Translations under genes and position numbers: made by a program | Notes under the pieces: generated by a model | Database searches by the model: none | Told to the model about the DNA's origin: nothing | What the model saw: the letters and a program-made list of their open reading frames with translations, nothing else | Source of the DNA: Heptranchias perlo | Taxonomy: Eukaryota | Assembly: GCF_035084215.1 (NCBI RefSeq) | Contig: NC_090352.1 | Location: 17,670,001 to 17,734,000, forward strand | Length of the DNA stretch: 64,000 bases | Direction of reading: 5' to 3' | Shown: one piece after another, positions 3,561-59,991 of the stretch | How positions within the stretch are numbered: position 1 is the stretch's first letter | How the letters are laid out: every line of letters begins with the position of its first letter

Positions 3561-4426
3561 GGATCATTAACAATGCAGAGCACAGCTCTTTTGTCACTTC
3601 TAACAAGATAAAAACTCCCTTGCTGTCAACAAACAGGTCCCTAGTTGTGGTGATGGGATGGCACTGGCAAGTAAAGCAATGGGGAACCCTCAACCCAGTT
3701 ATTCACCTTTCCCACTGACAGGGGAGTACATGGGTTGAAAATCCCTTAAGAGGACAGGGAAGGTATTGGTTTTAAAAGTAATATATCCGTTTTTGTAAAC
3801 TAACGAGTGATGCTGTTTCATTAAAAGTCTGTAATGTTCACTGCTCTTTGGACATCTACTTACCAGCCTGCACTAAACTCCACATGGGCATCAAAGAACC
3901 CTGTGATTTGTGCTGTTGCAGCTTTCCATCCCTGGACTCGGGCTCGGATCAGGCCTTCACGTTTTTCATTCCGCACCATCTTCACCAGGCCAGGGTATCG
4001 CTTGTGAACATATTCTTCCAGCGGGGCCTTTAGTTCTTCTATAGCACGATAAAAACACAGAAAACATAGCCCAAATCAAAGGACACCAATAGATAGAGGA
4101 TTGTTTTAAAAATCTGAATTTCCATATGCTGTTCACCAGCAGATTTCCTGGGTAAGCTAATTAGCATATGAACTGCTGTAAGTACTGGCAAAATTCACAT
4201 GTAAAATCAGTGTAAGCAGCTGAACCCCCAGGAAACTTGTGCAATAATAGTGTAAAGTTACTCTGCAGACTCCAGTTTTCAGCATAAACCTGGCAGTATT
4301 TCCTTTCTCAGTTCTGCTCAAATCTCCCCACATCTATAACCCACAGCTTTATTCTATGTTGGCAGCAGGATGGCAATGCAGGCGGCATCTGTACCCAATG
4401 GACAAGCAGGCAGAAGAGGTGGAAGA

Positions 4427-5040: not shown

Positions 5041-5146
5041 CAATGTGTTCCGCAAATGCTTTCACAGACCTCCAGAAGCATACAGATGGACAAAAGGTCA
5101 GGCAGGCATGCAGCTTTTCTACTACATGTTTTGAAGCTTACTGTAC

Positions 5147-5313
5147 CATCATCACTATTGTCATCCACAAGGATAATCTCTTTCAGTAGATGGGCTGGCG
5201 TGTGATTCACTGCACTGTGCACAGATCGGAGGATGACTGACAGAGCTTCATTCACAAAGATGAAAATGAGGGAAATCTGCGGCAGGTTCTTGGGGTAGCT
5301 CAATTCTTTGCAT
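5147..5313 (-). CDS. GALNT17: GALNT17 coding exon 3 (start of the GT-A catalytic domain)
   Basis: Translates (R)[55 protein letters not shown]. Acceptor ttcctcAG|A, donor G|GTACAG; 167 bp. Phase 2 start completes the AG left by exon 2 (AG+A = Arg). Confidence 0.93.
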
Positions 5314-7719
5314 CTGAGGAACAGAAAATTTAAATTAAGCCTCTCGATCTTTTTATAGCATCACCCGCACAGTCACAAGGATGTCAACTATCTATAAATA
5401 TGATGTTACACAGCAAGCAGAGGAATTTGCATTTCATGAGATACTTAGGTCTTTCTTTTAGAGCCCAATTATCTAAATTGTAATATTCATATTTTGCAAG
5501 TTGTGAAAGGCAAGTGAGATATTTCACATTCCTAACATTTCATATGGCTAATCCAATTGCATTATACTGCAGGTAAGCAGAAATTTAACGTGAACAGATT
5601 TTAGCAATTCATTACAAATCACCGTAAGGGATGAGTTATATAGATTAAATTATTGGATTAAGATAAAACTGAAAAAAGCATTGTAGAAAAAGACAATTCA
5701 CCCTTTTAAATGACTTCCGTAAGGGGAAAGAAAGACCGAGCAAGGGAGGGGGAAAGTAGCCAGACTCAGCAAAATGTCAACGAGTGAAGCGTTTCAAAGA
5801 CTCGGGATGATTCATGAATGAATGACTTTATATTCCATGAGAATTTTGAGGTTTTAATGAGTCAGGGCTTTTCATTTAATCCCGTACATGATTCCAAGTG
5901 ATGGACAGCTCAAGTACCAGTTTCGCACGATTTGCCATTTATGAAGCACCATCATTGTCTGTATGTCAGAAATGCTGGGTTTACAGGTGAATGGGAGCAC
6001 ATATTGCAGACACAAATATACTGTGCAAATCGAACGTTTCGGTGATAATCTGGGTGATTTTTTTTTATCAAACATTTCCAAAATACTGTGGGTTGCAATA
6101 TGAAAAATACTTTTCACTGGACAAAAGCCACAGAAAATAGACAGTGAATAAAAATAACCTTTTGCTGAGAAGAATCCACATGAGCCACACATTGAAAGAA
6201 ACATGTATTAAATGCATTTTAAATTTACAATTTACTGGTGGGTAGATGAATGGATTTGTCTCTATTTTTACCTCAACATGATGCTCAGACATATAAACTA
6301 TGAGAACATGTCATTTTTAAGATCTTTTACGCTGGTTCAAGATTGAATTCGCCCAGATCAGGCCCCGCCTGCAAAACTGGCCACGCCCCCAGGTCAGCAT
6401 TGCGAGTTTCTGCCGATTGCTCTGCACTCACTTTCTGAGGCGTGCAGGCACTAGCAGGCAAGTTTTTAAAGTTCTTGCCCATCAAAAAATATTAAATTTA
6501 TTAAGAAACTGACCAGTGTACACCAATGAAACCAGTAAATGGTTCAATATAGTTTTTTTTAATTCATTTTCAGTGATTTTAAATCAGGTCACTCACAGAT
6601 GGAAGCCTGGACGCTTTTATTAAAAATGCTTATTTTTTGAGTTAAACCCATTTTTAGGTGTTTAATAGAACTGCACCAGGTTACCACTCCTAAATACAGC
6701 AATGAATATTTTTTAATGGAAAGAAAAAAAATAAACAATTATGTTCCATTACACTGCACGATTGTGCTGGTTCATGGAAGATTTTACATTTGTGATTATG
6801 CAAATACTTGAACTGTAACGTAACCTGTGCAATTTCGGGCATATTTTGTGTGCTATTTCCCAATTACGCCCAAACTTTACTTAAACATGAATAAAGTTAT
6901 TCCTTTTCATTCAGTCTTGGATTACAAAGAACCCAGAATAAATTCCAAACAAGAACTTTACTGAAGTAGTTATACTACATGTCATTCCATTTCTCAAATT
7001 TCATGGAAATTATGTCTCACATTGAAACAGACAGCACTATGAGGAATAAAAAACATTTAATACATGATAGGTTAAAGTTTCTGATTGAGCCTGTTATGGG
7101 GCATCAGCCAGGTGATGTGTCATTAGCATCCAGTCGGCCAGTTATAGTGCTGACCCCACCTGACTGAATATTACCCTGCACATTTACATAACGTGGATGA
7201 GCTCCTAGTTCATGTTGGACTTGGCACTGGGAGCCAGGTTAGGACAGCAGGAGATCACATGTAAGCAACCTATTTTTATTATTTTCTATCCTCTTTACTG
7301 CAGATTATTCATATCTTAGATCACTCTTGGGTCCCAACTCACTGTATCTTCAAGACAGTTCATCCTAGCCTTGGAGCATCACACCTTCAGATCACGGTTT
7401 AAGTTTAAGCCATTAAATACATTTAATGAAAGACAGAAAAGCAAATAAGTAGTCATAAAATATATTTAAATATTCACGTTAGTAATCCTTCCGCCAAATT
7501 TCTGGAGTGGAATAACAATAAAAGGAAATATTAAGCCAAACTTTTGTGAAAAAAATGTTGAAATTTTCTTCTTGAATTTCTTACCACTATGGGAGCTTAC
7601 ATTAATATAAACGATTCCTTGCAAATGTCAACCCCATTTTCTGTCCCTCAAAGTGTTTCAATTTGTTCTCTCAGCTCTATTCAAACTGACTCCTCAATTC
7701 AAACAGAATGGCTTTGTTT

Positions 7720-8431
7720 TCATTCTTTCATGGGATGTGGGCATCGCTGGCAAGGCCAGCATTTATTGCCCATTCCCAATTGTCCTTGAGAAGGTGGGGG
7801 TGAGCCGCCTTCTTGAACCGCTGCAGTTCATATGGTGAAGGATCTCCCACAGCGCTGTTAGGTAGGGAGTTCCAGGATTTTGACCCAGCAACAAGGAAGG
7901 AACAGCAATATATTTCCAAGTCAGGATGGTGTGCGACTTGGAGGGGAACGTGCAGTCGGTGGTGTTCCCATGCGTCTGCTGCCCTTGTCCTTCTAGATGG
8001 TAGAGGTCATGAGTTTGGGAGATGCTGTAGAAGAAGCCTTGGCGAGTTGCTGCAGTGCATCCTGTGGATGGTGCACACTGCAGCCACAGTGCGCCGGTGG
8101 TGAAGGGAGTGAATGTTTAAGGTGGCGGATGGGGTGCCAATCAAACGGGCTGCTATGTCCTGGATGGTGTCGAGCTTCTTGAGTGTTGTTGGAGCTGCAC
8201 TCATCCAGGCAAGTGGAGAGTATTCCATCACACTCCTGACTTGTGCCTTGTAGATGGTGGAAAGGCTTTGGGGAGTCAGGAGGTGAGTCACTCACCGCAG
8301 AATACCCAGCCTCTGAGCTGCTCTTGTAGCCACTGTATTTATGTGGCTGGTCCAGTTAAGTTTCTGGTCAATGGTGACCTTCAGGATGTTGATGGTGGGG
8401 GATTCGGCGATGGTAATGCCATTGAATATCA
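7720..8431 (-). mobile_element. RT-LINE (second family), 3' fragment, copy 1
   Basis: THLLTPQSLSTIYKAQVRSVMEYSPLAW...LHHRRTVAAVCTIHRMHCSN, the same as ORF 20003-20722. Confidence 0.9.
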
Positions 8432-8967
8432 TTTTTTTTTATTCGTTCATGGGATGTGGGCGTCGCTGGCAAGGCTAGCATTTATTGCCCATCCCTAATT
8501 GCCCTTGAGAAGGTGGTGGTGAGCTGCCTTCTTGAACCGCTGCAGTCCATTTGGTGAAGGTTCTCCCACAGTGCTGTTAGGTAGGGAGTTCCAGGATTTT
8601 GACCCAGCGACGTGGAAGCAACGGCGATATATTTCCAAGACGGGATGGTGTGTGACTTGGAGGGGAACGTGCAGGTGGTGTTGTTCCCATGTGTCTGCTG
8701 TCCTTGTCCTTCTAGGTGGTAGAGGTCGTGGGTTTGGGAGGTGCTGTCGAAGAAGCCTTGGCGTGTTGCTGCAGTGCATCCTGTAGATGGTACACACTGC
8801 AGCCATGGTGCATCGGTGGTGCAGGGAGTGAATGTTTAGGATGGTGGATGGGGTGCCAATCAAGCGGGCTGCTTTGTCAATGGTGACCCCCAGGATGTTG
8901 ATGGTGGGGGGTTCGGCGATGGTAATGCCATTGAATATCATGGCGACGTGGTTAGACTCTCTCTTTT
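8432..8967 (-). mobile_element. RT-LINE (second family), 3' fragment, copy 2, internally deleted and abutting copy 1
   Basis: ORF 8495-8977 joins INILGVTID directly to KAARLIGTP; its poly-T tail at 8432 directly follows copy 1. Confidence 0.9.
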
Positions 8968-11070: not shown

Positions 11071-13389
11071 ACTTACCAGAAGCAATAATACAGGAGTTAC
11101 ACTTGGATATAAAGGTGTCAATGTAAGCTAGTCTGTAAACTGCTGTTGGAGGGTGAAAACTGAAAAGCTGTGTCACGTTCTGTAGTCCTGCGACAATATT
11201 GGACACTATAGGGTAAATATTGCGATGCTCCTTGTGGCCAGCAGGGCCTCGCATAATTACAGGCCAATGCATTGTGATAATGTGACAGGCGCTGGGTATA
11301 AGAGCCTGCTGGTAGTGAGTGGCTGCACAAAATTTAGCCTTAAATCTCATTTTGACTCTGTTCTGTCAATGGATCTAAATATTAGCCTGGAAATAATGTG
11401 AAGGTCATTCAGCATGGGGCCAAATCAATCCTCAAAAAGCAAAAGTAATTCTAAAATAATATTAGAAAAAGTGCTAGAAACCAAACCAGCACATTAAAGA
11501 TGTCAAGAACATTATCATCATGAGTTATGAGGTAGCTCAGCTGTGGAATGGACCCACTTCAGACTTCACACTTTGCTAATTGGTTCATAAAAGAGGAGGG
11601 GGGAGTAATCAGAACTCTAACCAAGGGCATTGAGGATAATCTACCAATAAAACAAAAAGTCAGAGTTGAAATAATCGAATCAGTCAAAATACATCTTCAA
11701 AATTTTTCAGCTGCCGTTTTTTTCTTCAGCCAGCCAACTACACACCGATAAGAAAATGTTACAAGTAATGTTTGTAACATACTCAGCTTGTCACACTCTG
11801 AGCTTGTGCACTGTGGGAAATCTCTCAGCAGGCATCAGTATGATTCTCTCGAACAGTCTGCACAACAACTCAAAGCTGGTCTTTTCTTAGGCTACAACAG
11901 TAATTATTCATCAACTTGTTTTTCCAAATTTTTGATACAAAACTATTTCAAAGTGCTTAGTTTTACTTCAGAGACAGGCTAGCTTAGAGAGAGGGAAGCT
12001 GGACAAGAAACAAAGGAAGACAGAAAGAGACACACATACACACGTGTGAGAACATGTGAAAAGCACGGAAGGTGGGGGGAAGTCAGGTAGAAATGGAAAC
12101 ATGAAAAAGTGGCAAGGGGCAAGAGGCTCCTATATCCCAGCAGCTTGGGAGAAGGAAAAAGCAAGGCGACATGGAGAGTGCAGACCATCTCACTAGCAGT
12201 GTTCTGACAGAGGGTCCCCACCCCAAGAACCAACCTGTTCTGTTTCCCCCCTTCACCCTGAATTTTGCAGCAGCATGGGACAGGTGAGTACTGGAGATGT
12301 CCTTTAATGGTGCCAGTGCCCACTGGCCCCATGTAAATTAGGTGGCACCAGAATGATCCTATAAAATCTAGCAGAGTCAGTGCTGAGGACATACCAGGCA
12401 TTACTGCCATGATTGTGGTCCATCGATGTTTATGGCCATTGTTTGAAAACAAATCAATATTGGCAAGAATTACTATTGCGGCCTTAACAGCTCTACACTG
12501 TAATGTTAATACAGCACTCTACTAAACTCTAAACAAGAACATTCTAAATAAAAGGAAACAAATTAAATAGGCATTAATACAGCAGGGGGATATAACCCAG
12601 CCTTACATTGAGAAAAGCTGTGAATAAATATTATGAGGAAAATAGAGACAGTTTTTGCTCATTAACTAAAATGCACAGGAATCACAAATAGTTGTTCAAA
12701 ATGCTACGACTAGCTTAGCGTACGAGACCCAATTTACACAATATTAGCTAAGTTCAACATTTACAACCTTGCTTTCCATTGATCTATGCAAGAAAATGAT
12801 ACAAAGACTTTTTCGTTCTTGAAGGCACCTTCAAAGGAAACTGGTAGCAGCAGCACATCATCAACAGCAAACTGCTTAAAACATAAAACATCACCATCCA
12901 CAGAAAAAATTGCTGGCTCAAAGTCAAAGTGACCTTGGTTTAAATTCATCCTACTCTGTCAATTCTTGCAAATTTCTTGCTATTCTGTCAGAGGTAGACG
13001 TTATTTGGATATTTCTGGGTCTTTCCCCCACATAGACACACACATTATTTGCATCAGATCACTGCTAGCGCTAGCCCTCCCCTAAATTCAGTGAAAATCA
13101 TCATTAAGATTATCTAAATTTAATGTGTCAACTCTAGTGTGCATAATGATGCTTCATAGGCTGGTCTTCTGCATTTGGGTAAGGGCTGGATTTTGTATAC
13201 TCACCAACTCCTCCATCAAAAGAACAGGACAGTCAGTCCCGCGAGATCTTTCTGGATGGCATCGATGCTGATTCTTGATAGACCAACCAGCAAGCTTTCA
13301 CTTCTCCCCACACATAACTTGGATAATGGTTAAAATTCTCCTTCTTGGGAAAGTTCTTGAGTGAGATACATCCTGTTCTATCCTAGTTA

Positions 13390-13611
13390 TGATGTGGAGA
13401 TGCCGGTGATGGACTGGGGTTGACAATTGTAAACAATTTTACAACACCAAGTTATAGTCCAGCAATTTTATTTTAAATTCACAAGCTTTCGGAGGCTTCC
13501 CCCTTCGTCATTTTCACATCGTTCACCTGACGAAGGGGGATGCCTCCGAAAGCTTGTGAATTTAAAATAAAATTGCTGGACTATAACTTGGTGTTGTAAA
13601 ATTGTTTACAA
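13390..13611. mobile_element. Penelope-like (PLE) non-autonomous insertion: inverted terminal (pseudo-LTR) sequences with a 12-bp TSD
   Basis: Perfect direct repeat ctatcctagtta at 13378-13389 and 13612-13623; arms 13427-13510 and 13528-13611 are reverse complements at 83/84; contains a hammerhead motif, as PLE termini do. Family assignment is by recall, not by search. Confidence 0.8.
13522..13560 (+). ncRNA. Minimal type-I hammerhead ribozyme motif
   Basis: TTCAC (stem I) - CTGACGA core - extra A - GGGGG/atg/CCTCC (stem II) - GAAA - palindromic AGCT stem III - UH - GTGAA (pairs with TTCAC). Confidence 0.75.
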
Positions 13612-14949
13612 CTATCCTAGTTAGGCATCAAAGTGCTTTGTTATCATGAGCATTAACCATAGGTCTTTAGCTAGTTTTAGTATTGACAGCTAATAGACAG
13701 CCAATGCCTCCAATGCTTGGGCATTCCCAGCCACGAGGAGGTCAGTTTAACTGGGAACATTTATTTCTCTGTTGTTATTTTAGAGTCTGACACATGATTG
13801 ACTGATAGAGGATGTTCCTTTGCAGGGCAAGAACGATCCTGACAATTCCTTCTTTTCAGCTCCTGCCTCCCTCCCATTCTGTCACTGAAGCCTCGCTGAT
13901 CAGCTAGGTCACATTTAACCAGACAGTTCAAAATGAGCACCCACATAACTATTGTCAGTGACTGTCAAAATATAAGGAGTCTTCAGTAAATATTGCCAAT
14001 ACCATTCTGAATGGAAGGGCGGGCAGCACAGCTTGTGGACATTCATCATCAGCTGTATTTATATAGGGCTCCTCACCTAAATGAAAATATCTCCATGTAT
14101 TTAACAAGATGGAAAGACACAGAACAGAGAAAGGCAGAAAATTTAGTGGAGGAAGACTGAAGGCACTGCCAAAGAGAAAGGTATTTAGGGGGCTTCTGAT
14201 GGCATAGGGGGAGGTAGCAAGGCAAAGAGGTTTGGAGACATAATTTTAGGGACAAGGGGTAGCAACTGAAAGTGTAGCCTTGGATGGTGGAGCAGGGAAC
14301 AAGTGGTAATGCAATATCAAAGGAGTGGAGGATGCATGCAGGGATATGTGGCTGGAGAAGGCCTCTAAGATAGATGGAAACCATGGATAGAATTTGAAGA
14401 CAGAGATAAGATATTGAAATCAATTTGCTGTTTACATGGAGTAAGTGTACAATACTCCAGAGATGGATGAAATTGGCCAAAATGGGGGTTCAAAGCTCAG
14501 TTCAGGGTAGAATGGGATGCTGAGTTGCTCACCTCAGTGAGCCTGATAGTGTAACCAGGGAGGTTGGTAGAGTCGAGGCCAGAGAAATATAATTGCTGGC
14601 AGGAGCAAAAAAGGATGGCTCCAGTTTTACCAATATAGAGCCAACAGAAACAATAATGCATCCAGTAATTAATATCAGAGAGGCAGTCGGATTAGTCAGT
14701 TCAGAATTAACGGTGAGAAGCATACATTTCAAATGGCACAAAACTGGGCCACTAAACCCGTTTATTACCCTGTACAAACTCAAATGAGCTCAGACAATTA
14801 TTGCAAATTTGCATGTTGTCCCAGTTTACACTAGGGACATAGCAGCAAAAGAACTTTAGCAGCTAAACATATACCAAAATACAGATGATGATGAAAAGTA
14901 TGGCATCTTATCAAGAGCAAATACACAATGGAATAAGTTTTGCAGTGAA

Positions 14950-15260: not shown

Positions 15261-15616
15261 GTGGGCCATGGTGTGAGCTCATTGCCACAACACATTGCTC
15301 TGGCAATGTAGGCCAAAAAGTCAGGGAAGTTAGCCACATTCGTGCTTCTACTTTCTATCTCCTGGCTTGTTGTTTACATTTTGTGGCCCTGATAGTTTGT
15401 TAAGGGCGCCATTGCCCTGTTGGTGGATATATCCTAAATCTATTAGAAGCAGCAACTTGAGATATCTGCAAATTAATGGATCTAAATTTTATAGGTGAGT
15501 TGCAAGGCTCCATGGTATGCACCTAAGCAGTCAAAGGTTTGGGCATTCTTGGGGCTGGGATGAGAAGATGGTAGGTCAGGTTTATTCCTAATAAAAGAAT
15601 TGGCTTGTTACTCAGA

Positions 15617-16801
15617 AACAGGGCATTTAGAAAATCATAATATGATTAAGCAGAGTCAACACGATTTTATGAAAGGGAAATCGTGTTTGACAAATCTATT
15701 AGAGTTTTTTGAGGGTGCAACTAGTAGGGTAGACAAGAGGGAACCAGTGGATGTAGTATATTTGGATTTTCAAAAGGTATTCGATAAGGTGCCACACAAG
15801 AGGTTGTTGCACAAGATTAGGGCTCATGGGATTGGGGGTAATATAGTAGCATGGATTGAGGATTGGTTAACGGACAGAAAACAGAGAGTAGGAATAAACA
15901 GGTCATTTTCAGGTTGGCAGGTTGTAACTAGTGGGATGCCACAAGGATCGGTGTTTGGGCCTCAGCTGTTGAAGATAGAGTATAACTTTAGGAAATGTGA
16001 AATTATCCACTTTGGTAGGAAGAATAGAAAAGAAGAATATTTTTTAAAAGATGAGAGACTAAGAAATGTTGGTATTTAGAGGGATTTGGGTGTCCTTGTA
16101 CACGAATCACAGAAAGTTAACATGCAGGTACAGCAAGCAATTAGGAAGGCAAATGGTATGTTAGCCTTTATTGCAAGGGGGTTGGATTATAAGAGTAAGG
16201 AGGTCTTGCTGCAATTATATAGGGCTCTAGTTAGACCACACCTGGAGTACTGTGTACAGTTTTGGTCTCCTTACCTAAGGAAGGATATACTTGCCTTAGA
16301 GGGGGTGCAATGAAGGTTCACTAGATTGATTCCTGGGATGAGAGGGTTGTCCTATGAGGACAGATTGAGTAAAATGGGCCTATATTCTCAGGAGTTTAGA
16401 AGAATGAGAGGTGACCTCATTGAAACATATAAGGTTTTGAGAGGGCTTGACAGGATAGATGCTGAGAGGTTGTTTCCCCTGACTGGAGAGTCTAGAACCA
16501 GGGGTCGTAGTCTCAAGATAAGAAATCGGCCTTTAGGACCAAGATGAGGAAAAATTTCTTCACTCAGAGGGTTGTGAATCTTTGGAATTCACTACCCCAG
16601 AGGGCTGTGGGTGCTCACTCGTTGAGTGTATTCAAGATTGAGATCGATAGATTTGTGGACACCAAGGGATTCAAGGGATATGGGGATAGGACAGGAAAGT
16701 GGAGTTGAGGTAGAAGATCAGTCATGATCTTATTGAATAGCGGAGCAGGCTCGAGGGGCCGTATGGCCTACTCCTGCTCCTATTTCTTATGTTCTTATGT
16801 T
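15617..16801 (+). mobile_element. CR1 LINE: RT region and 3' UTR, 5'-truncated, internal deletion near 15970
   Basis: QHDFMKGKSCLTNLLEFF..VYLDFQKVFDKVPH..GMPQGSVFGP runs straight into KCEIIHFG (the FADD motif is missing); RPHLEYCVQFWSP; tail ttcttatgttcttatg. Confidence 0.93.
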
Positions 16802-18539: not shown

Positions 18540-19445
18540 TGGAAATGAATGGCTAATAATGCAGACTTCCATTTACAGATGTTACTTTGGAGGCGTTTCT
18601 GCAAGAAGGGAGATTGCTCTGTTTGGGACCCCAAGGCACCTTCCCCATAGGACAACTATACACTTTGCTTGGCTGATGGTGATGAACAGCGTAAACACTT
18701 GTCAAATGGTAAAGGATGTGGAAAGTTTCACTATACCAAGTAGATGGGCAGACATTGCATGTAACAAAACATTTCACCCACTCTACTGAACCATGGATGA
18801 GAGTGCATGCTAGGCCCACAGAGAGCAGGTCTTCCCATAGTTTTGCCTGCCCTGTTACACTGCAACAAGGCACAATTCATTAATGCCACTTCAAAATGTA
18901 GCCACTGTGGACTGCTACTTACTGATGGCATCATGGTTACTTCCTGGATAATGGTCAATAGTACCTCTGTGGCACTTGAACATTGAATGAGTGCAAACCC
19001 TTGTTGTGCATGTAAGCCATAAGGTTGATAGGAGAAACCCTAAAGCTCTCATGGGATCCCTAAAGAAGCCGACCACCTTCCGAAAATTCGGCATCCTGCC
19101 CAGCTGATGCCTCCTTTCCACAGAGAAAGTGGTGAAGGCATTGCCCCTTGCAAATATAAAATCTAATCACTTGCTTGGTGTAGGTGTGCATTGTCCCATG
19201 GGGTGACTTTGAAGCATGATCGCTTCATCCTGAGGTAACCTTCATTTCTATCGGAAGTTGTCCAGATTGCTACCGGAAGAGATTCCAGATTTTGTTTGAA
19301 GCAGATGGCACAGCTGCCTGACAGCCTGTCTTGTGAAGCAGAGGTGGTGAAGACTGGTCTCTTCTGTTATGTGGAAAGATCTATCAACGTGTAACTGATG
19401 AGTGTAGACATAATGCCTCGGGTGTCTTTGCACCTGTATTTGTTT
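18540..19445. mobile_element. Deleted Harbinger relic with convergent Myb/SANT (+, ~18540-18740) and transposase (-, ~18780-19445) remnants
   Basis: + strand: PFTDVTLEA../VSARREIALFG...FAWLMVMNSVN. - strand: RHPRHYVY..ITEETSLHHLCFTRQAVRQLCHLLQ; KGLHSFNVQ; YPGSNHDA. Confidence 0.65.
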
Positions 19446-19482
19446 GCCCCTCACGGACTCCACTTCCTCACATTCATTCCTC

Positions 19483-20917
19483 ACGGCTGAGTGCACTGGA
19501 TACAACAAAGGCTATGGGCTCCAACAACATCCCGGCTGCATCCCACCCCATCAGCCAACTCTTAATTATCAGCAAAGTGATGGATGGTGTCGTCGACAGT
19601 GCTATCAAGCGGCACTTACTCACCAATAACCTGCTCACCCATGCTCAGTTTGGGTTCCACCAGGAACACTTGGCTCCAGACCTCATTACAGCCTTGGTCC
19701 AAACATGGACAAAAGAGCTGAATTCCAGAGGCGAGGTGAGAGTCACTGCCCTTGACATCAAGGCAGCATTTGACCGAGTGTGGCACCAAGGAGCCCGAGT
19801 AAAATTGAAGTCAATGGGAATCAGGGGGAAAACTCTGCAGTGGCTGGAGTCATACCTAGCACAAAGGAAGATGGTAGTGGTTGTTGGAGGCCAATCATCT
19901 TAGCCCCAGGACATTGCTGCAGGAGTTCCGCAGGGCAGTGTCCTTGGCCCAACCATCTTCAGTTGCCTCATCAATGACCTTCCCTCCATCACAAGGTCAG
20001 AAATGGGGATGTTCGGTGATGATTGCAAGGTGTTCAGTTCCATTCGCAACCCCTCAGATAATGAATCAGTCCATGTCTGCATGCAGCAAGACCTGGACAA
20101 CATCCAGGCTTGGGCTGATAAGTGGCAAGTAACATTCGCGCCAGACAAGTGCCAGGCAAAGACCATCTCCAACAAGAGAGAGTCTAACCACCTCCCCTTG
20201 ACATTCAACTGCAATACCATCGCCGAATCCCCCACCATCAACATTCTGGGGGACATCATTGACCAGAAACTTAATCGGACCAGCCACATAAATACTGTGG
20301 CTACAAGAGCAGGTCAGAGGCTGGGTATTCTGTGGCGAGTGACTCACCTCCTGACTCCCCAAAGCCTTTCCACCATCTACAAAGCACAAGTCAGGAGTGT
20401 AATAGAATACTCTCCACTTGCCTGGATGAGTACAGCTCCAACAACGCTCAAGAAGCTCGACACCATCCAGGACAAAGCAGCCCGCTTGATTGGCACCCCA
20501 TCCACCACCCTAAACATTCACTCCCTTCACCACCGGCGCACAGTGGCTGCAGTGTGTACCATTCACAGGATGCACTGCAGCAACTCACCAAGGCTTCTTC
20601 AACAGCACCTCCCAAACCCGCGACCTCTACCACCTAGAAGGACAAAAGCAGCAGGCACATGGGAACAAGACCACCTGCACGTTCCCCTCCAAGTCACACA
20701 CCATCTTGTCTTGGAAATATAGCACCGTTCCTTCATCATTGCTGAGTCAAAATCCTGGAACTCCCTTCCTAACAGCACTGTGGGAGAACCTTCACCACAA
20801 AGACTGCAGCGGTTCAAGAAGGCGGCTCACCACCACCTTCTCAAGGGCAATTAGGGATGGACAATAAATGCTGGTCTTGCCAGCGACGCCCACATCCTAT
20901 GAATGATTTTTTAAAAA
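19483..20917 (+). mobile_element. RT-LINE (CR1/L2/jockey-group) reverse transcriptase and 3' end, pseudogenised
   Basis: QFGF..ALDIKAAFDRVWHQG..AGVPQGSVLGP..MFGDD RT motifs in ORFs 19514-19903 and 20003-20722, separated by a stop. Exact clade not determined. Confidence 0.92.
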
Positions 20918-21321: not shown

Positions 21322-24080
21322 ACATAGAATCATAGAATAATAGAAAGGTTACAGCACGGAAGGAGGTCATTCAGCCCATCGAGTCCGTGCCAGCTCAATG
21401 CAAGAGCAATCCAGCTAGTTCCACTCCCCGCCCTATCCCCGCAGCCCTGCAAATTTTTGCCTTTCAAGTACTTATCCAGTTCCCTTTTGAAGGCCATGAT
21501 TGAATCTGCCTCCACCACTCCCTCAGGCATTAGGATTTCCAGATTCTAACCACTCGCTATGTAAAAAAGCTTTTCCTCATATCACCTTTGGTTCTTTTCC
21601 AATCACCTTAAATCTATGTCCTCTGGTTCTTGGCCCTTCCGCCAATGGGAATAGTTTCTCTATATCTACTCTGTCTAGACCCTTCATGATTTTGAATACC
21701 TCTATCAAATCTCCTCGCAACCTTCTCTGTTCCAAGGAGAACAACCCCAGCTTGTCCAGTCTATCCACTAAAGTCCCTCGTCCCTGGAATCATTCTAGTA
21801 AATCTCTTCTGCACCCTCTCAAAGGCCTTCACATCTTTCCTAAAGTGCGGTGCCCAGAACTGGACACAATACTCCAGTTGTGGCTAAACCAGTGTTTTAT
21901 AAAGGTTCATCATGACTTCCATTCTTTTGTACTCTATGCCTCTATTTATAATGCCCAGGATCCCTTATGCTTTTTTAACCGCTTTCTCAACCTGCCCTGC
22001 CAACTTCAATGAATTGTGCACATATATCCCCAGATCTCTCTGTTCCTGTACCCCTTTTAGAGTTGTGCCCTCTAGTTTATATTGCCTCTCCTCGTTCTTC
22101 CTACTGAAATGTATCAATTTGCATTTTTCTGCGTTAAATTTAATCTAATACGTGTCCGCCCATGCCACCAGCCTGTCTATATCCTCTTGAAGTCTATCAC
22201 TACCCTTCTCACTGTTTACTACCATTCCAAGTTTTGTGTCATTTGCAAATTTTGAAATTGTGCCCTCTACACCCAAGCCCAAGTCATTAATATATATCAA
22301 GAAAAGCAGTGGTCCCAGCACAGACCCCTGGGGAACACCACTGTACACCTCTCTTCAGTATGAAAAACAACCGTTCACCACTACTCTGTTTCCTGTCACT
22401 TAGCCAATTCTGTATCCATGTGGCTACTGCCCCCTTTATTCCATAGGCCGCAATCTTGGATGACAAGCCTATTATGCGGCACTTTATCTAACACCTTTTG
22501 AAAGTCCATATACACCACATGAACTGCATTGCCCTCATCGACCTTCTCTGTTACCTCATCAAAAAACTCTATCAGGTTAGTTAAACACGATTTGCCTTTA
22601 ACAAATCTGTGCTGGCTTTCCCTAATCAATCCACACTCATCCAAGTGACTGTTAATTCTGTCCCGGATTATCGTTTCTATAAGTTTCCCCACCACTGAGG
22701 TTAAACTGACTGGCCTATAGTTGCTGGGTTTATCCTTACACCATTTTTTGATCAAGGGTGTAACATTTGCAATTCTCCAGTCCTCTGGCACCACCTACGG
22801 ATGTTTGGAAGATTATGACCAGTGCCTCCACAATTTCCACCCTCGCTTCCCTCAGCAACCTAGGATGCATCCCATCCAGACTGCTTGACTTATCTACTTT
22901 AAGTACAGCTAGCCTTTCTAGTACCTCTTCTTTATCAATTTTTAGCCCATCCAGTATCTCAACTATATCTTCCTTTACTGAGACTGTGGCAGCATCTTCT
23001 TCCTTGGGAAAGACAGATGCAAAGTACTCATTTAGTACCTCGGCCATCTCCTCTGCCTCCATGAGTTGATCTCCTTTATGGTCCCTAATCAGTCCCACCC
23101 CTCCTCTTACTACCCGTTTACTGTTTACATGCCTGTAGAAGACTTCTGGATTCCCTTTTTTGTTGGCCGCCATTCTATTCTCATACTCTCTCTTTGCCTC
23201 TCTTATTTCCTTTTTCACTTCCCCTCTGAACTTTCTATATTCTGCCTGGTTCTTACTTGTATTATCAACCTGACACCTGTCATACACCCCTCTTTTCCGT
23301 TTCATCTTACTCACTATCTCTTTTGTCATCCACGGAGCTCTGGCTTTAATTGCCCTACCTTTCTGCCGCTTAGGAATGTGCCTAGACTGTTCCTGAACCA
23401 TCTCCTCTTTAAAGGCCGCCCACTGTTCAATTACAGTTTTGCCTGCCAATCTTTGATTCCAATTTACCCTGGCCAGATCCGTTCTCATCCCATTGAAATT
23501 GGCCCTCCTCCAGTTGAGTATTTTTACTTTAGAGTGGTCCATGTCCTTTTCCATAGCTATTCTAAACTTTATGACACTATGATCACTGCTCCCTAAGTGC
23601 TCCCCAACTGACACTTGCTCCACTTGACCCACCTCATTCCCTAGAACCAAGTCCAGCAATATCTCCTTCCTCGTTGGGCCGGAAACATACTGGTTAAGAA
23701 AGTTATCCTGAACACATTTCAAAAATTTCCCCCTCTCTATTATTATTGTTATCTCACTCTATATTTGGATAGTTGAAATACCCAGCTATTAATTGCACCT
23801 CTCTGTAATTTCCTTGCAAATTTGCTCCTCAACATCCTTCCTAGTGGTTGATAGCCTATAGAATACATCCAGTAGTTTAATGGCACCTCTTTTATTTCTT
23901 AATTCTAACCAAATAGATTCTGTCCTGGACCCCTCCAGGACATCCTCTCTCCAGTACTGCAATATTCTCCTTAATCAAAACTGCCACCCCCCCCCCACCT
24001 CCTTTCTTTCCTTCCTTATCTTTCCTGAACACCTTGGATCCAGGAATATTTAATACCCAATCCTGCCCTTTGTAGAGCCA
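21322..24080 (-). mobile_element. CR1 LINE ORF2 (EN C-terminus, linker, RT) and 3' tail, fragmented
   Basis: ORFs 22736-23722 (PTRKEILLDLVL..LGSSDH), 22396-22794 (NYRPVSLTS..YMDFQK), 22145-22348 (GVPQGSVLGP..KFANDT), 21577-21768; tail at 21322-21345. Confidence 0.95.
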
Positions 24081-26479: not shown

Positions 26480-26950
26480 TCTTTTGAATCTTGGTGGTGT
26501 TCATGCAATATGGTCGTTGGCCATTGACCCAAGCTCTCGGTGGCTCACCACATTAACTCCCCCTCCCATCCTACTCTGACCTGTCAGTGGCTTCATACAC
26601 TGTTTCAACAAAGCTCAACGTAAGTTTCATCTTTCTCCTAGGCACCCTCTAGTCTGAACACTGACTTCAGCTATATGCTCATTTTCAAACCAGTTTTAAT
26701 AACACCATCTCCTGGTGTGAATTCCAATCACACCAGAAGATGGTCTAATTAAAACTGGTTTGAAAAGTTTTAATTTCATACCTATCCCCCCAGGTTTTAC
26801 AGCTCTCCCATATCTCCAGGTCTCCCACTTAGCTGTTCAAAACACGCTTTGTTTCATTAATGTCTTAATACTTGACAGACGAAAACTTGTTTGCTCCTCC
26901 CACAGATGCTGACTGACTTACTGTGTGTTTACAGCATTTTCTGTTTTTGT
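26480..26950 (+). mobile_element. Degenerate Penelope-like 3' fragment (GIY-YIG C-terminus and tail), interrupted by a palindrome
   Basis: SYSDLS..GFIHCFNKAQRK..FIFLLGTL-like sequence, followed by the cacagatgctga..cagcattttctgtttttg tail. Assignment by recall. Confidence 0.5.
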
Positions 26951-31637: not shown

Positions 31638-31820
31638 GGGGATAATTTTAACCTAATCTGGCGGGTGGGAAACCCACAGGATCGGGTGGACGGCCAGTTT
31701 TACAGCCCGCCCAATATTACTCTCCATTGGCCTCAATAGGGAGTAAAATCAGGTGAGGTGTAAAACTAACATTGCACCAAAACCCGTCAGTTTCCCGAAG
31801 GTCGGGTTAGGTTACTCCCC
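31638..31820. mobile_element. Palindromic MITE (Harbinger-like)
   Basis: ggggataattttaacctaa...ttaggttactcccc termini; internal symmetry around actctccattggcctcaatagggagt. Confidence 0.6.
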
Positions 31821-38285: not shown

Positions 38286-38469
38286 CTATTTGGTCGATAG
38301 TCTGGGATGGATCGATCCAGTGAAATCCTGTTACTCAGATATGTATTGTATCCATATTTTTCATATGCTCCTGTAGCTTCTCTTTCTTCTTCAGTAGTGA
38401 GTGTAGCAGGCAATCCTCCCTGTCCTCGTCCACCAAACCCTTCAATGAGCCCAAGTGATTTTGACAAGC
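38286..38469 (-). CDS. GALNT17: Polypeptide N-acetylgalactosaminyltransferase 17, coding exon 2 (stem region)
   Basis: Translates (G)LSKSLGLIEGFGGRGQGGLPATLTTEEEREATGAYEKYGYNTYLSNRISLDRSIPDYRPN(R), matching recalled GALNT17/WBSCR17 (GLSKSLGLIEGYGGRGKGGLPATL...KYGYNSYLSEKISLDRSIPDYRP) better than GALNT9. Acceptor ccactttAG|GC, donor AG|GTAAGT; 184 bp, phase 1 to phase 2. Confidence 0.93.
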
Positions 38470-39394
38470 CTAAAGTGGGAGTCAACATAACATAGACCAT
38501 TATGAAAATGGTATACTATAAGCAAATAATTTACAAGTTTTATGTCCTATATTTCAGAATCTACTTATTCCTCAGGAAAGAAAAACAATCATAAACATAC
38601 GGATATGGTGCATGAGAGCTTAATGCAGATCCAAGCCAAAAAAAATAAAATAAAATCCTATCCAAGTTCTGTAGTTCAGGGGAGGCCCACCCCTTACATC
38701 AGCATGGTTTGACAAGAATGAAAAAATCAAAAGAAGCAGAGTCCAGATTTCGCCTGTAGTACAGACTCCAGGGGGAAAAATTGAGCCTCGCTGTGCCCGT
38801 TTTTTGGACACAGAGCAGAGGGCAAAAAGCAACGATTTCTCAGTGCTGTCTCCCACATCCTAAGGGCGCCTGAAATACAGTCCGATGTCATATTGGGCTG
38901 GTGGTTATTCAGGCATCACTTGTGGATGTTTAAAACATTCATTAGGCCCCTTGCATATGTAAATCAAAGGCCTAACACCTGTTTCAAGACCTTACCCAGA
39001 AATTCATTAGGACTGAGCAGAGCAGGCGCCAGGTTTTTGGGTGCTTTAGTGGCCGAATTAGCAGTCCTTAAAGGGACTGCAGCAGGCCGCCGTCAAAAAG
39101 GTAGTTTCTTTTAAACTTACCTTCATGTGGAGCCAGGAGGATCAGGAGTGCTCCCCCCAGCTCCACAGCATTACTGCAGGCCAATATCGGCTCGCACTAG
39201 CCCCCCTCCCGTTCTCCCCACTCCCCCAAGGGCTGCTTACCTGAAGGCCACTGCCAGTGAGGCAGCCGGCCCAAATTGGTCAACTTCAAACTGGCTAGCT
39301 GCCTCTGGATGCCCGATTGGCATCTACTGCTCGCTGAAAATGTGCTGATGAGGTCCGAGGCTCGAGACCTAATTTTGGTCGAGCCTCGGGCCTT

Positions 39395-40224: not shown

Positions 40225-41380
40225 GGGCATGATTTTATCAAGGATCTGGGAAGGGCTTGGAGGGTGGAATTCCTGATGGGAAACCCAGAAGGATGGATTT
40301 CCAGGACATCCTTTTGATTTTGACTTTTTTTTGATGATGGTTTCCCGCCTGACAGGCCAGCCTGATTTACAGGCTGGCATCGGTCGGACAGGAGAAGAGG
40401 AAGGAAGGGGATAGGATCAGGTGAGTGTTTGATGGGGGGAGGGGGCATGGAGGGGCGTCGGGGGTCACCGGAGGGGTCAGTCATCAGGGAGCTCAGTCAT
40501 CAAGGGGGTCGGGGGTCACGTTGGGGCTCAGTCATCGGGGGGTCAGTCATCGGGGGGCTCAGTCATCGGGGGGCTCAGTCATCGGGGGGTCAGTCATCAG
40601 GGAGCTCAGTCATCGGGGGGTCAGGGGTCATGTTGGGGGTCAGTCATCGGGGGGCTCAGTCATTGGGGGGGGTCAGTCATCGGAGGGGGTCAGTTATCAG
40701 GGGTAATCGGAGGGGCTCAGTCATGGGGATCATGGGGGGGTCAGTCATCGGGGGTCATTGGGGGGTCATGTGTCACCGGGTGGGTCTGTAATCGGGGGGG
40801 GATCATTGGGTGAGGGGTCAGTCATCGGGAGTCATCAGGGGGTCTGGGGTCACCGGGCGGTCAGTCATTAGGGGGCTCAGTCATCGGGGACAGGGCGGGT
40901 TCAGGGGTCGGGGGTCATCAAGGGGGCTGGAAATCATGAGGGGGTCAGAGATCGTGGGGGTGGGGGGATCGAAGATCATGGGGTGGGGGGCGTGGAGATC
41001 ATGGGGAGGGTCGCTGCAGGTAGGCTTGTTGGGTCTAGGGGAAGCACTCCTGCTCCTCTGGGCCCACAAACTGTGCTCTAAAGTTACTTACCTGCTGTTT
41101 CGGGCCTTCTCGCCTCCTCTCAGGTGGCGTGAAGTAGAAGGCCCAGGAATCCTGGCCCCCCGGGGTTAGAAACAAAAAACCTGTTAAAATGGAGGCCCGC
41201 AGCCTCCTTGAAAACTTTAAGTGACTGACCCGCCTCCTGAGAGCAGGATGGTCACCCGCCCCTCGTCCCACCTCCGTTGAAACCGGAAATGGGTGGGTTG
41301 GAGGTGGGTTTTAGATTTTTAAAATTTTTACTGCCTCCACCCCCCCAACCCACCCATTTTTCCGAGTTAAAATCATGCCC
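40225..41380. mobile_element. Harbinger-type MITE with 13-bp perfect TIRs and a 3-bp TSD
   Basis: gta|GGGCATGATTTTA ... TAAAATCATGCCC|gta. Confidence 0.85.
40440..41010. repeat. G-rich minisatellite, unit about GGGGG(C)TCAGTCATC (15-16 bp)
   Basis: Many tandem copies of tcagtcatc plus a G-run; degenerates toward both edges. Confidence 0.9.
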
Positions 41381-48882: not shown

Positions 48883-51800
48883 TAGGAATATAGGAACAGG
48901 AGTAGGCCATTCAGCCCCTCGTGCCTGCTCCGCCATTTGATAAGATTATGGCTGATCTGTGATCTAGTTCCATATACCTGCCTTTGGCCCATATCCCTTA
49001 ATACCTTTGGTTGCCAAAAAGCTATCTATCTCAGATTTAAATTTAGCAATTGAGCTACTATCAATTGCCATTTGCGGAAGAGAGTTCCAAACTTCTACCA
49101 CCCTTTATGTGTAGAAATGTTTTTTAATCTCACTCCTGAAAGGTCTGGCTCTAATTTTTAGACTGTGCCCCCTACTCCTAGAATCTCCAACCAGTGGAAA
49201 TAGTTTCTCTCTATCCACCCTATCCGTTCCCCTTAATATCTTATAAACTTCGATCAGATCACCCCTTAATCTTCTAAACTCTGGAGAATACAACCCCAAT
49301 TTGTGTAATCTCTCCTCGTAACTTAATCCTTGAAGTTCGGGTATCATTCTAGTAAACCTACGCTGCACTCCCTCCAAGGCCAATATGTCCTTTTGAAGGT
49401 GCGGTGCCCAGAACTGCTCACAGTACTCCAGGTGCGGTCTAACCAGGGTTTTGTATAGCTGCAGCATAACTTCTGCCCCCTTGTACTCCAGTCCTCCAGA
49501 TATAAAGGCCAGCATTCCATTAGCCTTATTGTTTATTTTCTGCACCTGTTCATGACACTTCAATGATCTATGTACCTGAACCCCTAGGTCCCTTTGGACA
49601 TCCACTGTTCTTAACTTTTTACCATTTAGAAAGTACCCTGTTCTATCCTTTTTTCATCCAAAGTGGATGACCTCACATTTGCCTACATTGAATTCCATCT
49701 GCCACAGTTTTGCCCATTCACCTAATCTATCAATATCCCTTTGTAATTTTATGTTTCCATCTACACTGCTTACAATGCCACCAATCTCTGTGTCATCGGC
49801 AAACTTAGATATGAGACTTTCTATGCCTTCATCTAAGTCGTTAATAAATATTGTGAATAATTGAGGCCCCAAGACAGATCCCTGCGGGACTCCACTAGTC
49901 ACATCCTGCCAATGTGAATACTTACCCATTATCCCTACTCTCTGTCGCCTTTCGCTCAGCCAATTTCCTAACCAAGTCCGTACTTTTCCCTCGATTCCAT
50001 GGGCTTCTATCTTAGCTAACAGTCTCTTATGTGGGACCTTATCAAATGCCTTCTGGAAGTCCATATAAATAACATCCATTGACATTCACCTGTCCACAAC
50101 TTTAGTCACCTCTTCAAAAAATTCAATCAGGTTTGTCAGGCACGACCTACCTTTCACAAATCCATGCTGGCTCACTCTGATTAACTGAAACTTCTCGAGG
50201 TGTTCAGTCACCCTATCCTTAATTATAGACTCCAGCATTTTCCTCACAACAGATGTTAGGTGAGCTAGTCTATAATTCCCCGGTTTCCCTCTCTCTGTCC
50301 CTTACCTCTTTAGTTGTCCATGGCTGTTTTTTTTGGCAAGTAGAGTTCTTGCCCCTCAGGGGTATAAACCGATTCTGTATCTCGTTAAATGTTTCTTTAA
50401 ACATTTCCCACTGATCATCAGTCATTTTGCCCATTAACAGATTTGCCCAGTTTACTGTGGACAGTCTCTGTCTCATCCCATTGAAGTCGGCCTTACCCAA
50501 GTCTAGAATCTTAGCAGCTGATTCACTTTTTTCCCTTTCAAACACTACATTGAACTCGATCATGTTATGATCGCTATTGGATGGATGTTCATGCACAGTT
50601 AAGCTGTTAACTAAATCTGATTCATTACTCATTACTAAATCTAGTATGGCTTGCCCCCTTGTTGCCTCTAGGACATACTGCTGTAGAAAACTATCCCGGA
50701 CACACTCAAGAAATTCACTACCTTTCTGACAGTTGCTAGTCTGCTTTTCCCAATCTATATGAAGGTTCAAGTCCCCCATTAAGACCACTATGCCTTTGTT
50801 ACACACTTGTCTAATCTCTGCATTTATACAATCTAGCACTTCAGAGCTGCTGCCAGGGGTCCTATACACAACTCCCACTATAGTCTTAGATCCTTTCCTA
50901 TTTCTCAATTCAACCCATAAGGTCTCTGTTGGCTGCTTACCTCTCGTTATATCTTCCTTTATCATTGAATTGATTTAATCTCTAATCACTAAGGCTACTC
51001 CTCCCCCTCTTCCATTTTCCCTGTCTCTCCTGTAGACCTTATAACCCGGTACATTTAGTTCCCAATCCTGACCATCCTGTAGCCATGTCTCAGTAATAGC
51101 TATCATGTCATATCCTCCAATTTGAATTTGAACCTGTAGTTCATTTATTTTATTCCTTATACTCCGTGAATTTGTATATAGAACTCTTAGTTGGGCCACA
51201 CACCCTAGCCTGACCCTCGCCTTATGCCTTCTAGTTTTCACTTTATCTGTAGTGTCTAAAGTACACTTTCTTTCTGCTGCTCTACGCTTTTCCCTTTCAC
51301 TTGTTCTTGAACAACTGTTTGTACTATTTGTATTGTAAATTTCCGCTGGGTCTTCCCCACTCTTGCTGCTCTCAACTTTACTCCCTTCTGACTCCCTGCT
51401 AAGGTTCCCATCCCCCTGCCACTCTAGATTAAACCTTCCCCAACAGCACTAGCAAACACCCCCGCGAGGACATTGGTCCCGGTCCTGCTCGGGTGTAACC
51501 CATCTCCCTTGTACAGGTCCCACCTTCTCCAGAACCGGTCCTAATGTCCCAGGAATCTAAATCCCTCCCTCCTACACCATCCTGTCTATTCTCCTGTTCC
51601 TATACTCACTAGCACTTGGCACTGGTAGTAATCCTGAGATCATTACCTTTGAGGTTCTGCTTTTTAATTTATCTCCTAACTCCTCGAATTCACCTTGCAG
51701 GACCTCGTCCCTTTTTTTACCTATGTCGTTTGTACTGATATGGACCATGACTACTGGCTGTTCACCCTCCCCCTCCAGAATGCCCTGCAGCCGTTCTGTG

Positions 51801-52350
51801 ACATCCTTGACCCTAGCACCAGGGAGGCAACATACAATCCTGGAGTCATGTTTACGGCTGCAGAAAGGCCTATCTGTTCCCCTTACAATTGAATCCCCTA
51901 TCACTATAGCCCTGCCACTCTTCTTCCTCCCCTCCTGTGCAGCAGAGCCACCCGTCGTGCCACGAACTTGGCTCTTGCTGCTTTCCCCTGATAAGCCATC
52001 TCCCCCAACAGCATCCAAAGCAGACTATCTGTTTGAGAGGGAGATGGCCCCAGGGGACTCCTGCTCTACCTGCCTAGTCCTTTTACTCTGCATGGCGGTC
52101 ACCCATTTCCTTTCTGCCTGCGGTGTGACCACCTCACTGAACGTGCTATCCACGATAGTCTCAGCATCGCGGATGCTCCACAGTGAATCCACCCGCAGCT
52201 CCAGCTCCGAAATGCGGTTTGCCAGTAGCTGCAGCTGGACACACTTCCTGCACACATGGTCACCAGGGACACTGGTAGTGTCCATGACTTCCCACATAGT
52301 GCAGGAGGAGCATATCACAGGTGCGAGCTCTGCTGCCATGACTTGCCTTA
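48883..52350 (-). mobile_element. Near full-length CR1 LINE (ORF1 and ORF2), inactivated; EN-RT linker deleted near 50290
   Basis: ORF1 zinc finger and esterase; ORF2 APE endonuclease (YTNSRS..ITETW..MGDLN..SDH) and RT (YMDFQKAFD..GVPQGSVLGP..KFADDT); 3' tail at 48883. Confidence 0.95.
51572..52339 (-). pseudogene. CR1 ORF1: CxxC..CxxC zinc finger, leucine zipper and SGNH esterase
   Basis: CSSCTMWEV..HVCRKCVQLQLLANRISELELRVDSL; IVIGDSIVRG..CCLPGARV..HISTND; stop near 52025 and C-terminal truncation. Confidence 0.9.
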
Positions 52351-58954: not shown

Positions 58955-59991
58955 GCAATTGTGATTCACCAAGGGTATGCACAAGGGTATTTGACAAAAT
59001 GTTATGTTGTTAATTTATATATTTTTTTTGGTTATATCACCATAATATTTATCACCACCACTGCCATGTCTTGGCCATTTTGTGATTTCGTCCTTTCATG
59101 TGCTTCATCATGAATGCCAAGACAATATGCCACCCATCGGGCAGATGTGCAATATATGTATATGTGATTGAAGGACTCTTTTGTACAAACGGAGTGGGGG
59201 GGTGGTAGTGGTTGTTCCAAGTGGCCTGAGTGTTTCAAAGTCTTCAATTTGCAGATCTTATTATGAGAACCTGTTAGAGATGAGTGACTCCCTGGCATCA
59301 CAGGCAGCCATGTGTACCGCTGCTCTGCTGATGGGTTGCCCACCATCATCCTCCTCCTCCTCATCGTCTTCTTCAATGTTCCCGCAGATGCGGATGCTTC
59401 ATGAGCGCATTCGAGCTTCCTCCACCTGTAACCCTCTCTGCTGAGCGATGTTGTGAAGGACGCAACACACCACTATTATCCTGCACACCCTCGCTGGTGA
59501 GTACTGAAGGGCACCCCCAGATCGATCCAGGCACCTGAAGCACATCTTCAACATTCCTATGGCTTGTTCAATGACAGACCTGGTGGTGATGTGACTGTCG
59601 TTGTACCGTTGCTGTGCCTCATTGGTGGGGTTTCTTACAGGTGTCATGAGCCATGTTTCAAGGGGTATCCTGTGTCTCCAAAGGGCCAGCCCTTAAGTCT
59701 ATCTTCTGTGTGGAAGAGAGCCAGGATGTTGGACTCGCACAAAATGAATGAATCATGACAGCTGCCAGGGAATCTGGCACAAACCTGCAGAAATCTCTTC
59801 TGGTGGTCACACACCAGCTGTGCATTGATGGAGTGATGTCCCTTTCAGTTTATGAACAGTCCTGGTTCATGTGGAGGTCCTCGGTCTGCCACATGTATGC
59901 AATCGATTGTTCCCTGCACCTGTGGGATGCCAGCCAGAGAGTTAAAACCCAATGTCCTCTCGGTCTGGCTGATGTTGTAGCGGGGGAAGAA

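Follow-up and report, generated by a model that had tools for sequence, protein, structure and literature searches.

Penelope-like elements (PLEs) typically insert with an inverted, 5′-truncated copy at their 5′ end and with a tail of 30–40 bp at one end only, as described in the available parts of PMC8557442 and, for the tail, of PMC11167929. Examples in the excerpts of PMC3846280 combine a 31-bp tail, TSDs of 8–10 bp, head-to-head inversion and microhomology joints, and a head-to-head, tailed layout is thus already on record as typical of PLEs (PMC8557442, PMC3846280). According to the accessible text of PMC11167929, the purified PLE protein of Anolis nicks and extends both target strands on an uncleaved RNA template, and it initiates within the RNA at two positions, the distance between which is the tail. 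How the inverted ends and tails arise is treated as an unsolved question in the portions of PMC8557442 and PMC11167929 at hand. PLEs also carry minimal type-I hammerheads (min-HHRs), which in the available sections of PMC4209133 occur as pairs 100–700 bp apart on opposite strands, with single motifs in truncated PLEs; the same sections report no cleavage of monomers and little of dimers. Dimer cleavage is a topic of Lunse et al. 2017, as cited in an excerpt of PMC6765202. In the accessible text of PMC11167929, none of the RNA reads is reported to terminate at the ribozyme cut.

The insertion described here lies in a window of 64,000 nt, the whole stretch of DNA analyzed, to which all coordinates refer. 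It is a head-to-head pair of 5′-truncated pLTR pieces, one tailed and one tail-less, and so has the PLE layout in miniature. It also belongs to a high-copy family whose tail end is sharp and whose fold-back junctions are many and different.

Anatomy of the insertion and its hammerhead

The features of the locus are as follows.
5314–38285, minus strand: host intron of a GALNT (polypeptide GalNAc-transferase) family gene, 32,972 nt, GT–AG
13378–13389, no strand: left TSD copy, whose last base is possibly the last base of the element
13390–13426, minus strand: unpaired 3′ extension of 37 nt, the inferred PLE 'tail', with unlike flanks joining at 13389/13390 in DNA run X2
13427–13510, minus strand: left arm, a 5′-truncated pLTR piece with its sense on the minus strand, starting at hammerhead-core U4
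13508–13510, no strand: 3-nt microhomology, common to the end of the left arm and to the parental sequence upstream of the spacer
13511–13527, plus strand: 17-nt spacer, extra 5′ pLTR sequence of the plus copy, as seen in contigs of X2 and of X14, a run from another organism
13522–13560, plus strand: minimal type-I hammerhead motif, fitting the PLE min-HHR consensus
13528–13611, plus strand: right arm, an inverted, tail-less pLTR piece ending 56 nt 3′ of the predicted cut
13612–13623, no strand: right TSD copy, identical to 13378–13389 at 12 of 12 positions

The 222-bp insert (13390–13611) lies between the two TSD copies. The perfect 12-bp TSD reported by the first-pass annotation was confirmed at all 12 positions; its 12-mer has no further occurrence on either strand of the 64-kb window, and a given 12-mer match would arise by chance with a probability of about 1e-7 at the local composition. 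Eight of its 12 bases are A/T in a region of 41% GC, a composition that describes one site only. The 222-bp fold-back from the same annotation also stood, with arms complementary at 83 of 84 positions around a 17-nt loop and a sole mismatch (13497/13541) that sits in hammerhead loop II. The right part, read on the plus strand, repeats the pLTR piece that the left part carries on the minus strand; its 5′ end reaches 17 nt further, and it has no tail. The 5′ ends of the two pieces meet at 13510|13511. The stretch 13390–13426 is AC-rich on the sense strand, and its end is 93 nt away from the predicted ribozyme cut, on the 3′ side. Since these 37 unpaired nucleotides match a PLE tail in size and position, the insertion is read as two 5′-truncated pLTR pieces set head to head. 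The insert has no ORF. An ATG at 13540 starts a short frame only and is missing from the other arm. No second copy of the element was found in the window and no tandem array at the locus; neither the 3′ part nor the tail is predicted to fold significantly (z −1.7 and +0.7, respectively).

All parts of a complete minimal type-I hammerhead, as first annotated on the plus strand, could be placed. Stem I comprises 13522–26/13556–60 (5 bp) and is followed by the core CUGACGA (13527–33) and an unpaired A (13534). Stem II, 13535–39/13543–47, has 5 bp including one G–U and the pair G10.1–C11.1, and on the 3′ side GAAA (13548–51) precedes the palindromic G–C and U–U. Canonical stem III and loop 3 are absent, as in the minimal form, and cleavage is predicted at 13555|13556. 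The motif, with U-rich and AU-rich flanks, agrees at every position with the PLE min-HHR consensus in the available part of the supplement to PMC4209133. A descriptor built from this published consensus and searched on both strands matched one site in the window, this one, compared to none in 150 random 64-kb sequences. Rfam hammerhead models gave no match at E values up to 10, and no Rfam model reached its gathering score in the window. The insert holds only one complete hammerhead because the minus-strand left arm lacks the 5′ strand of stem I and C3; both lie in the spacer, which consists of the U-rich leader, the stem I 5′ strand and C3 rather than foreign DNA.

The insert sits inside a GALNT intron, and this intron is transcribed from the strand opposite to the hammerhead. 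GALNT exons were located on the minus strand at about 38.3–38.5 kb, 5.15–5.31 kb and 3.9–4.0 kb, the first two of which flank the intron with matching phases. The host pre-mRNA is therefore the minus strand, on which the core has neither C3 nor stem I. By folding energy, the hammerhead fold costs 1.3 kcal/mol for the motif alone and 51 kcal/mol within the whole 222 nt, and in this copy the 84-bp stem is predicted to bury the ribozyme. Given this burial (+51 kcal/mol), the weak cleavage of min-HHRs and the minus-strand host transcript, activity at the locus is predicted to be nil, and the ribozyme would be a dead passenger of the pLTR. The window as a whole is vertebrate-like and rich in LINE RT and endonuclease remnants; no GIY-YIG domain was found in the 15 window frames scanned.

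Family copies and their junctions in sequencing runs

The run search covered 15 runs from seven studies, four of which were compared with the window, all as assembled contigs. Four DNA runs (X1–X4) come from one sample, which may be the source of the window's assembly, and each holds 93–96% of the sampled window words; no RNA run holding window words was listed among the 15. In X2, a DNA run from the same organism, 17,333 contig pieces match the window, and both insert/flank junctions are present in its contigs with 0 differences. Summed contig depth is 1.0–3.2 million over the insert versus 7–9 on the flanks. From this depth, which does not equal copy number, a rough family size of about 3,000 to 290,000 follows, with and without a 31-fold overlap factor. 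A total of 154 X2 contigs (95 + 59) with mutually unlike long flanks end at 13389/13390 (agreement 0.35 and 0.36), and the tail end is therefore a sharp family boundary. Its position is uncertain by one base because 95 contigs still include 13389 and 59 reach no further than 13390. The tail-less end is not among the 18 loose ends listed, which are followed by 283 more.

Joints within the family were counted at 84 in X2, and the 15 listed all differ. Their depth of 42–188 is 5–23 times that of the flanks (7–9), so identical junctions do recur; secondary copying may account for this, or hot spots within a very large family. The window copy's own junction, 13510|13511, cannot appear as a joint in such a comparison, and no listed X2 piece (8 of 17,333) spans it. 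The insertion had been called young in the first-pass annotation, which holds only in a relative sense: no empty allele was seen, as a joint from 13389 to 13624 is not among the 15 listed of 84. The X2 flank contigs reach 21–23 nt into the insert unbroken, a weak hint at homozygosity.

Sequence from another organism (run X14) identified the spacer. A 104-nt contig (depth 231) matches 13391–13494 without difference, and a 340-nt contig matches 13508–13561 before continuing upstream into sequence unlike the window; one X2 joint also starts at 13508. Because the 340-nt contig extends upstream from 13508, the spacer is parental pLTR sequence and 13508–13510 belong to both sides of the junction. 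Flank cover in X14 is confined to a short repeat at 13850–13883, so no orthologous empty site was obtained. Run X13 had no match to the window, possibly a false negative.

For junction statistics, the 15 listed joints were combined with six new ones from a second table, from which five repeats and one backward joint were dropped, and removal of two within-arm deletions from these 21 distinct forward joints left 19 fold-backs. None shares its end points with the window copy. Both arms end within 12 nt of each other in 12 of the 19, compared to an expected fraction of 0.18 for independent, uniform ends and a permutation mean of 4.8, with 0 of 100,000 permutations reaching 12. Among the rest, one fold-back has an offset of 21 nt and six have offsets of 61–123 nt; that of the window copy is 17 nt. 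The rank correlation of the two end points was not significant (rho −0.30, p 0.21; n = 19). Ends 0–6 nt 3′ of the predicted cut, a stretch that is AT-rich and self-complementary, occur in 6 of 19 joints (9 of 38 ends), and the bin 13571–13577 holds eight ends. These patterns are read as hints only, because the list holds just the best-supported joints out of a larger number and fold-back chimeras formed during library preparation could add symmetric ones.

No account of this family or of shark PLE fold-backs was found in the literature covered; the family may well be catalogued in Repbase or Dfam. Sequence matches to family motifs in papers and supplements were chance or unrelated. A 20-nt arm motif gave two metagenome, two prokaryote-genome and no viral matches. 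These four loci were judged to be chance because only 20–28 nt match, the sequence is bacterial-coding-like and no other part of the element is present.

Origin of the head-to-head layout

We consider it highly probable that the insertion is a dead-on-arrival, one-step product of an endonuclease-positive PLE, in which two 5′-truncated ends were joined head to head. A min-HHR within the pLTR, a head-to-head 5′-truncated copy, a 37-nt tail at one end and a short TSD are all PLE features, as are dispersed copies with variable 5′ truncation, seen here in X2 depth, loose ends and joints. The probable PLE parentage is drawn from ribozyme, tail and layout; no RT or GIY-YIG ORF was seen attached within the 30-nt loose ends visible. 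The 'extreme PLE truncation/inversion product' that the first-pass annotation had put forward as one option is thus the one retained, in view of the tail, the inversion, the TSD, the min-HHR and the many different family junctions.

How a PLE would have built this layout is more evenly balanced. Within the PLE explanation, a route through two cDNAs has, in our estimate, about an even chance. The PLE protein would cut both strands 12 bp apart, so that either side is left with a 3′ overhang of 12 nt. The top-strand 3′-OH would prime a cDNA from the tail end, 93 nt past the ribozyme cut in the 3′ direction, and the bottom-strand 3′-OH would prime at a second start site 37 nt upstream, giving the tail-less end 56 nt past the ribozyme cut. 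Both cDNAs would halt early, in the hammerhead region of an uncleaved RNA, after 121 and about 101–104 nt, and their 3′ ends would anneal via three bases. Gap filling by host repair would then yield head-to-head arms, one tail and the TSD, the hammerhead being carried along as a pLTR passenger. However, two independent cDNAs alone do not predict near-symmetric junctions in 12 of 19 cases.

Such symmetry would suit a rival that concerns the mechanism only, namely fold-back self-priming of one PLE cDNA. The cDNA would extend to 13508, its 3′ end would pair with three bases 17 nt back and copy the strand itself, and an endonuclease would resolve the hairpin, so that the tail is kept on one arm only. 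Besides the near-symmetric joints (≤12 nt, with no permutation of 100,000 matching their number), the 3-nt microhomology is compatible with this route as well; the available text of PMC3846280 argues for palindrome-based self-priming at inverted junctions, and that of PMC8557442 credits the tail to EN-mediated resolution. In this copy, however, the arm bearing the tail would have to be the second strand, copied from the first, and a target-primed first strand that has no tail cannot supply one. Self-priming needs an extra cut, because it is the arm reaching less far in the 5′ direction that carries the tail. The six strongly asymmetric joints of 19 (61–123 nt) and the lack of a significant end-point correlation also count against it, and the symmetric joints come from a best-supported subset in which library fold-back chimeras would be symmetric too. 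Self-priming is possible but overall rather doubtful in our judgment, and slightly less doubtful once a PLE origin is granted.

Three further explanations dispense with a one-step PLE product. A discrete non-autonomous mini-element, a retrozyme- or SINE-like fold-back whose 222-nt unit is re-inserted by PLE protein in trans, would be in keeping with the recurrence of some family junctions at 5–23 times flank depth, with known non-autonomous pLTR derivatives (bioRxiv 10.64898/2026.07.22.740005 and Chlamys MRC1 in PMC8557442, both in their available parts) and with the view, in the accessible text of PMC3846280, that pLTRs are enough for mobilization in trans. Junctions nevertheless vary widely, the hammerhead is single with no tandem array, no promoter is apparent, no second copy occurs in the 64 kb, and the 84-bp stem would sequester the ribozyme together with the protein-binding region. 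The many junctions and the parental spacer with its 3-nt microhomology therefore argue against a fixed mini-family or retrozyme. The small retrozyme-like family that the first-pass annotation had offered as its other option is accordingly set aside, its absent tandem units, one buried hammerhead and variable junctions leaving it improbable. If the ribozyme motif were a coincidence, a MITE, a fold-back DNA transposon or a pre-miRNA-like hairpin would explain the long near-perfect inverted repeat, and palindromic MITE-like repeats of about 220 bp are known from frogs (available part of PMC5625713). Rfam miRNA-type models do score 39–47 bits on the hairpin but stay far under their gathering scores of 65–160 bits; the inverted repeat is not terminal, with 37 unpaired nt at the left end, interiors are variable, family members extend upstream as longer linear sequence, and the motif was absent from all 150 random 64-kb sequences. 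We regard this explanation as very unlikely. An assembly or library artefact producing a false palindrome is, if anything, even harder to credit: hairpins are prone to fold-back artefacts and X1–X4 represent one sample, maybe the assembly source, yet the TSD is exact, the arms carry a mismatch, the spacer is parental sequence, and both flank junctions recur in X2 contigs without a difference, alongside the 93–96% of sampled words in four runs.

Editing hints and comparison with known systems

X5, a putative RNA run from the same sample as X2, contains 4,343 family pieces, with no cover on the flanks. Six differences were listed, three of which are A>G, at 5.1, 4.4 and 3.8% in X5 compared to 0.04, 0.008 and 0.4% in X2. 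Each A>G site has a 5′ T, which 5 of all 18 A's in the stretch have, and the six differences listed include no corresponding T>C. This family-level A>G pattern, from three sites in one putative RNA run, is suggestive in its resemblance to ADAR editing of hairpins. If the hint holds, these inserts would play the role that inverted Alu pairs play in primates. ADAR editing here would not be new in kind, because lizard Penelope is already reported as massively edited (available text of PMC5625713).

As a single insertion, this locus is likely an inert intronic copy of known layout and matters little. The family could serve as a data set: given a very large collection of short, nearly unmutated fold-backs with TSDs, junction counts would allow tests of twin priming, of priming by fold-back and of ribozyme cleavage in vivo. 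A far-reaching reading, which we think unlikely as a whole, is that the thousands of tiny fold-backs record how PLEs build head-to-head insertions: arm stops would be coordinated, one stop hot spot would lie 0–6 nt 3′ of the cut and give a first genomic indication that a PLE min-HHR cleaves template RNA in vivo, and the inserts would be a main self-contained dsRNA substrate of ADAR in this genome.

Among known systems, the closest are the endonuclease-positive PLEs (Penelope/Poseidon, Neptune and Nematis), which in the available parts of PMC8557442 and PMC3846280 share inversion, tail, short TSD, microhomology joint and strong 5′ truncation with this insertion. Unlike in such units, both pieces here are cut inside the pLTR, which leaves no ORF and an insert that is almost all hairpin, and the TSD is 12 bp compared to 8–10 bp in the Adineta examples of PMC3846280. 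The layout also parallels Poseidon_Ac (PAc) of Anolis carolinensis, for which the accessible text of PMC11167929 describes a min-HHR upstream of two RT starts separated by the tail, an AC-rich start region and an uncleaved RNA template; correspondingly, each arm of the insertion continues on the 5′ side of the cut. In the 3′ direction, the tailed end is 93 nt from the cut, and one PAc start is at about 85–92 nt (111–118 minus 26), a likeness in layout and position. The ORF of PAc begins inside the hammerhead, where the insertion has the short frame of the ATG at 13540.

The motif follows the PLE min-HHRs of Cervera and De la Peña 2014 (PMC4209133), whose consensus, in the part available, reads U-rich/NNN CUGANGAH G..C GAAAN palindrome NUH NNN/AU-rich. 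No motif from cartilaginous fishes, the putative host group, appears in the portion of the PMC4209133 alignment at hand, and the motif of this copy differs in being sequestered. Metazoan non-LTR retrozymes, as described in the available text of PMC7229834 and bioRxiv 10.64898/2026.07.22.740005, are likewise small, non-coding and pLTR-related, with a type-I hammerhead and longer TSDs. They are built, however, of head-to-tail tandem units with a mostly canonical hammerhead in each and form circular RNA, in contrast to the single head-to-head hairpin with one minimal motif found here. With the palindromic ADAR-edited repeats of PMC5625713 (Xenopus Harbinger and lizard Penelope, in the sections available), the insertion shares a self-contained, long intronic dsRNA stem; editing, which is documented for those repeats, is here a family-level hint from three sites in one run.

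A>G differences and subfamilies of the fold-back family

At the family level, A>G differences were found at three positions of the hairpins (window 13454, 13470 and 13475), each preceded by T, with frequencies of 4-5% in X5, a putative RNA run, versus 0.008-0.4% in X2, the DNA run of the same sample. These sites suggest that the family's fold-back hairpins are ADAR-edited. Common family variants in X2 were located at 13462 (58%), 13474 (35%) and 13466 (11%). Loose ends at 13510 and 13523 in X2, X5 and X14 (a run from another organism) revealed at least two other upstream sequences joined to the hammerhead core, and the repeat family therefore includes several subfamilies differing in stem I or leader.

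Junctions near the predicted hammerhead cut

Six of the 19 family junctions listed, the best supported of many, stop directly 3' of the predicted cut (13556-13562, mirror 13476-13482). Two further listed joints are same-arm deletions, restarting at 13481/13482, the mirror of the predicted cut. AT-rich microhomology confounds both patterns.

Other repeats, open frames and the host gene

LINE remnants in the window are numerous and of at least two kinds, with RT, endonuclease and GDSL-esterase-like ORF1 sequences; the stretch 7713-8878 looks like a local duplication. The three palindromes are possibly old MITE-like repeats, and the two adjoining open frames possibly a transposon remnant; the 307-codon frame had no Pfam match.

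Repeats and open frames in the window
7713-8965, 15564-16801, 19337-20906, 21642-23758, 48890-52024, 59992-60979: LINE remnants
51572-52024: GDSL-esterase-like ORF1 of a LINE remnant
26682-26766, 31649-31814, 55677-55766: imperfect palindromes, unrelated in sequence to the fold-back family
40464-40768: G-rich minisatellite, 16-nt unit, about 14-19 copies
58031-58954, +: 307-codon open frame
59032-59472, -: adjoining 146-codon frame

A short stretch at 13850-13883 is common to the window and a multi-copy X14 contig; it is a second repeat, unrelated to the insert and 230 bp away from it.

Polypeptide GalNAc-transferase family gene in the window
5314-38285, -: intron
near 38300-38470, 5146-5313, 3870-4040, -: exons

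This gene presumably resembles GALNT17/GALNT9.
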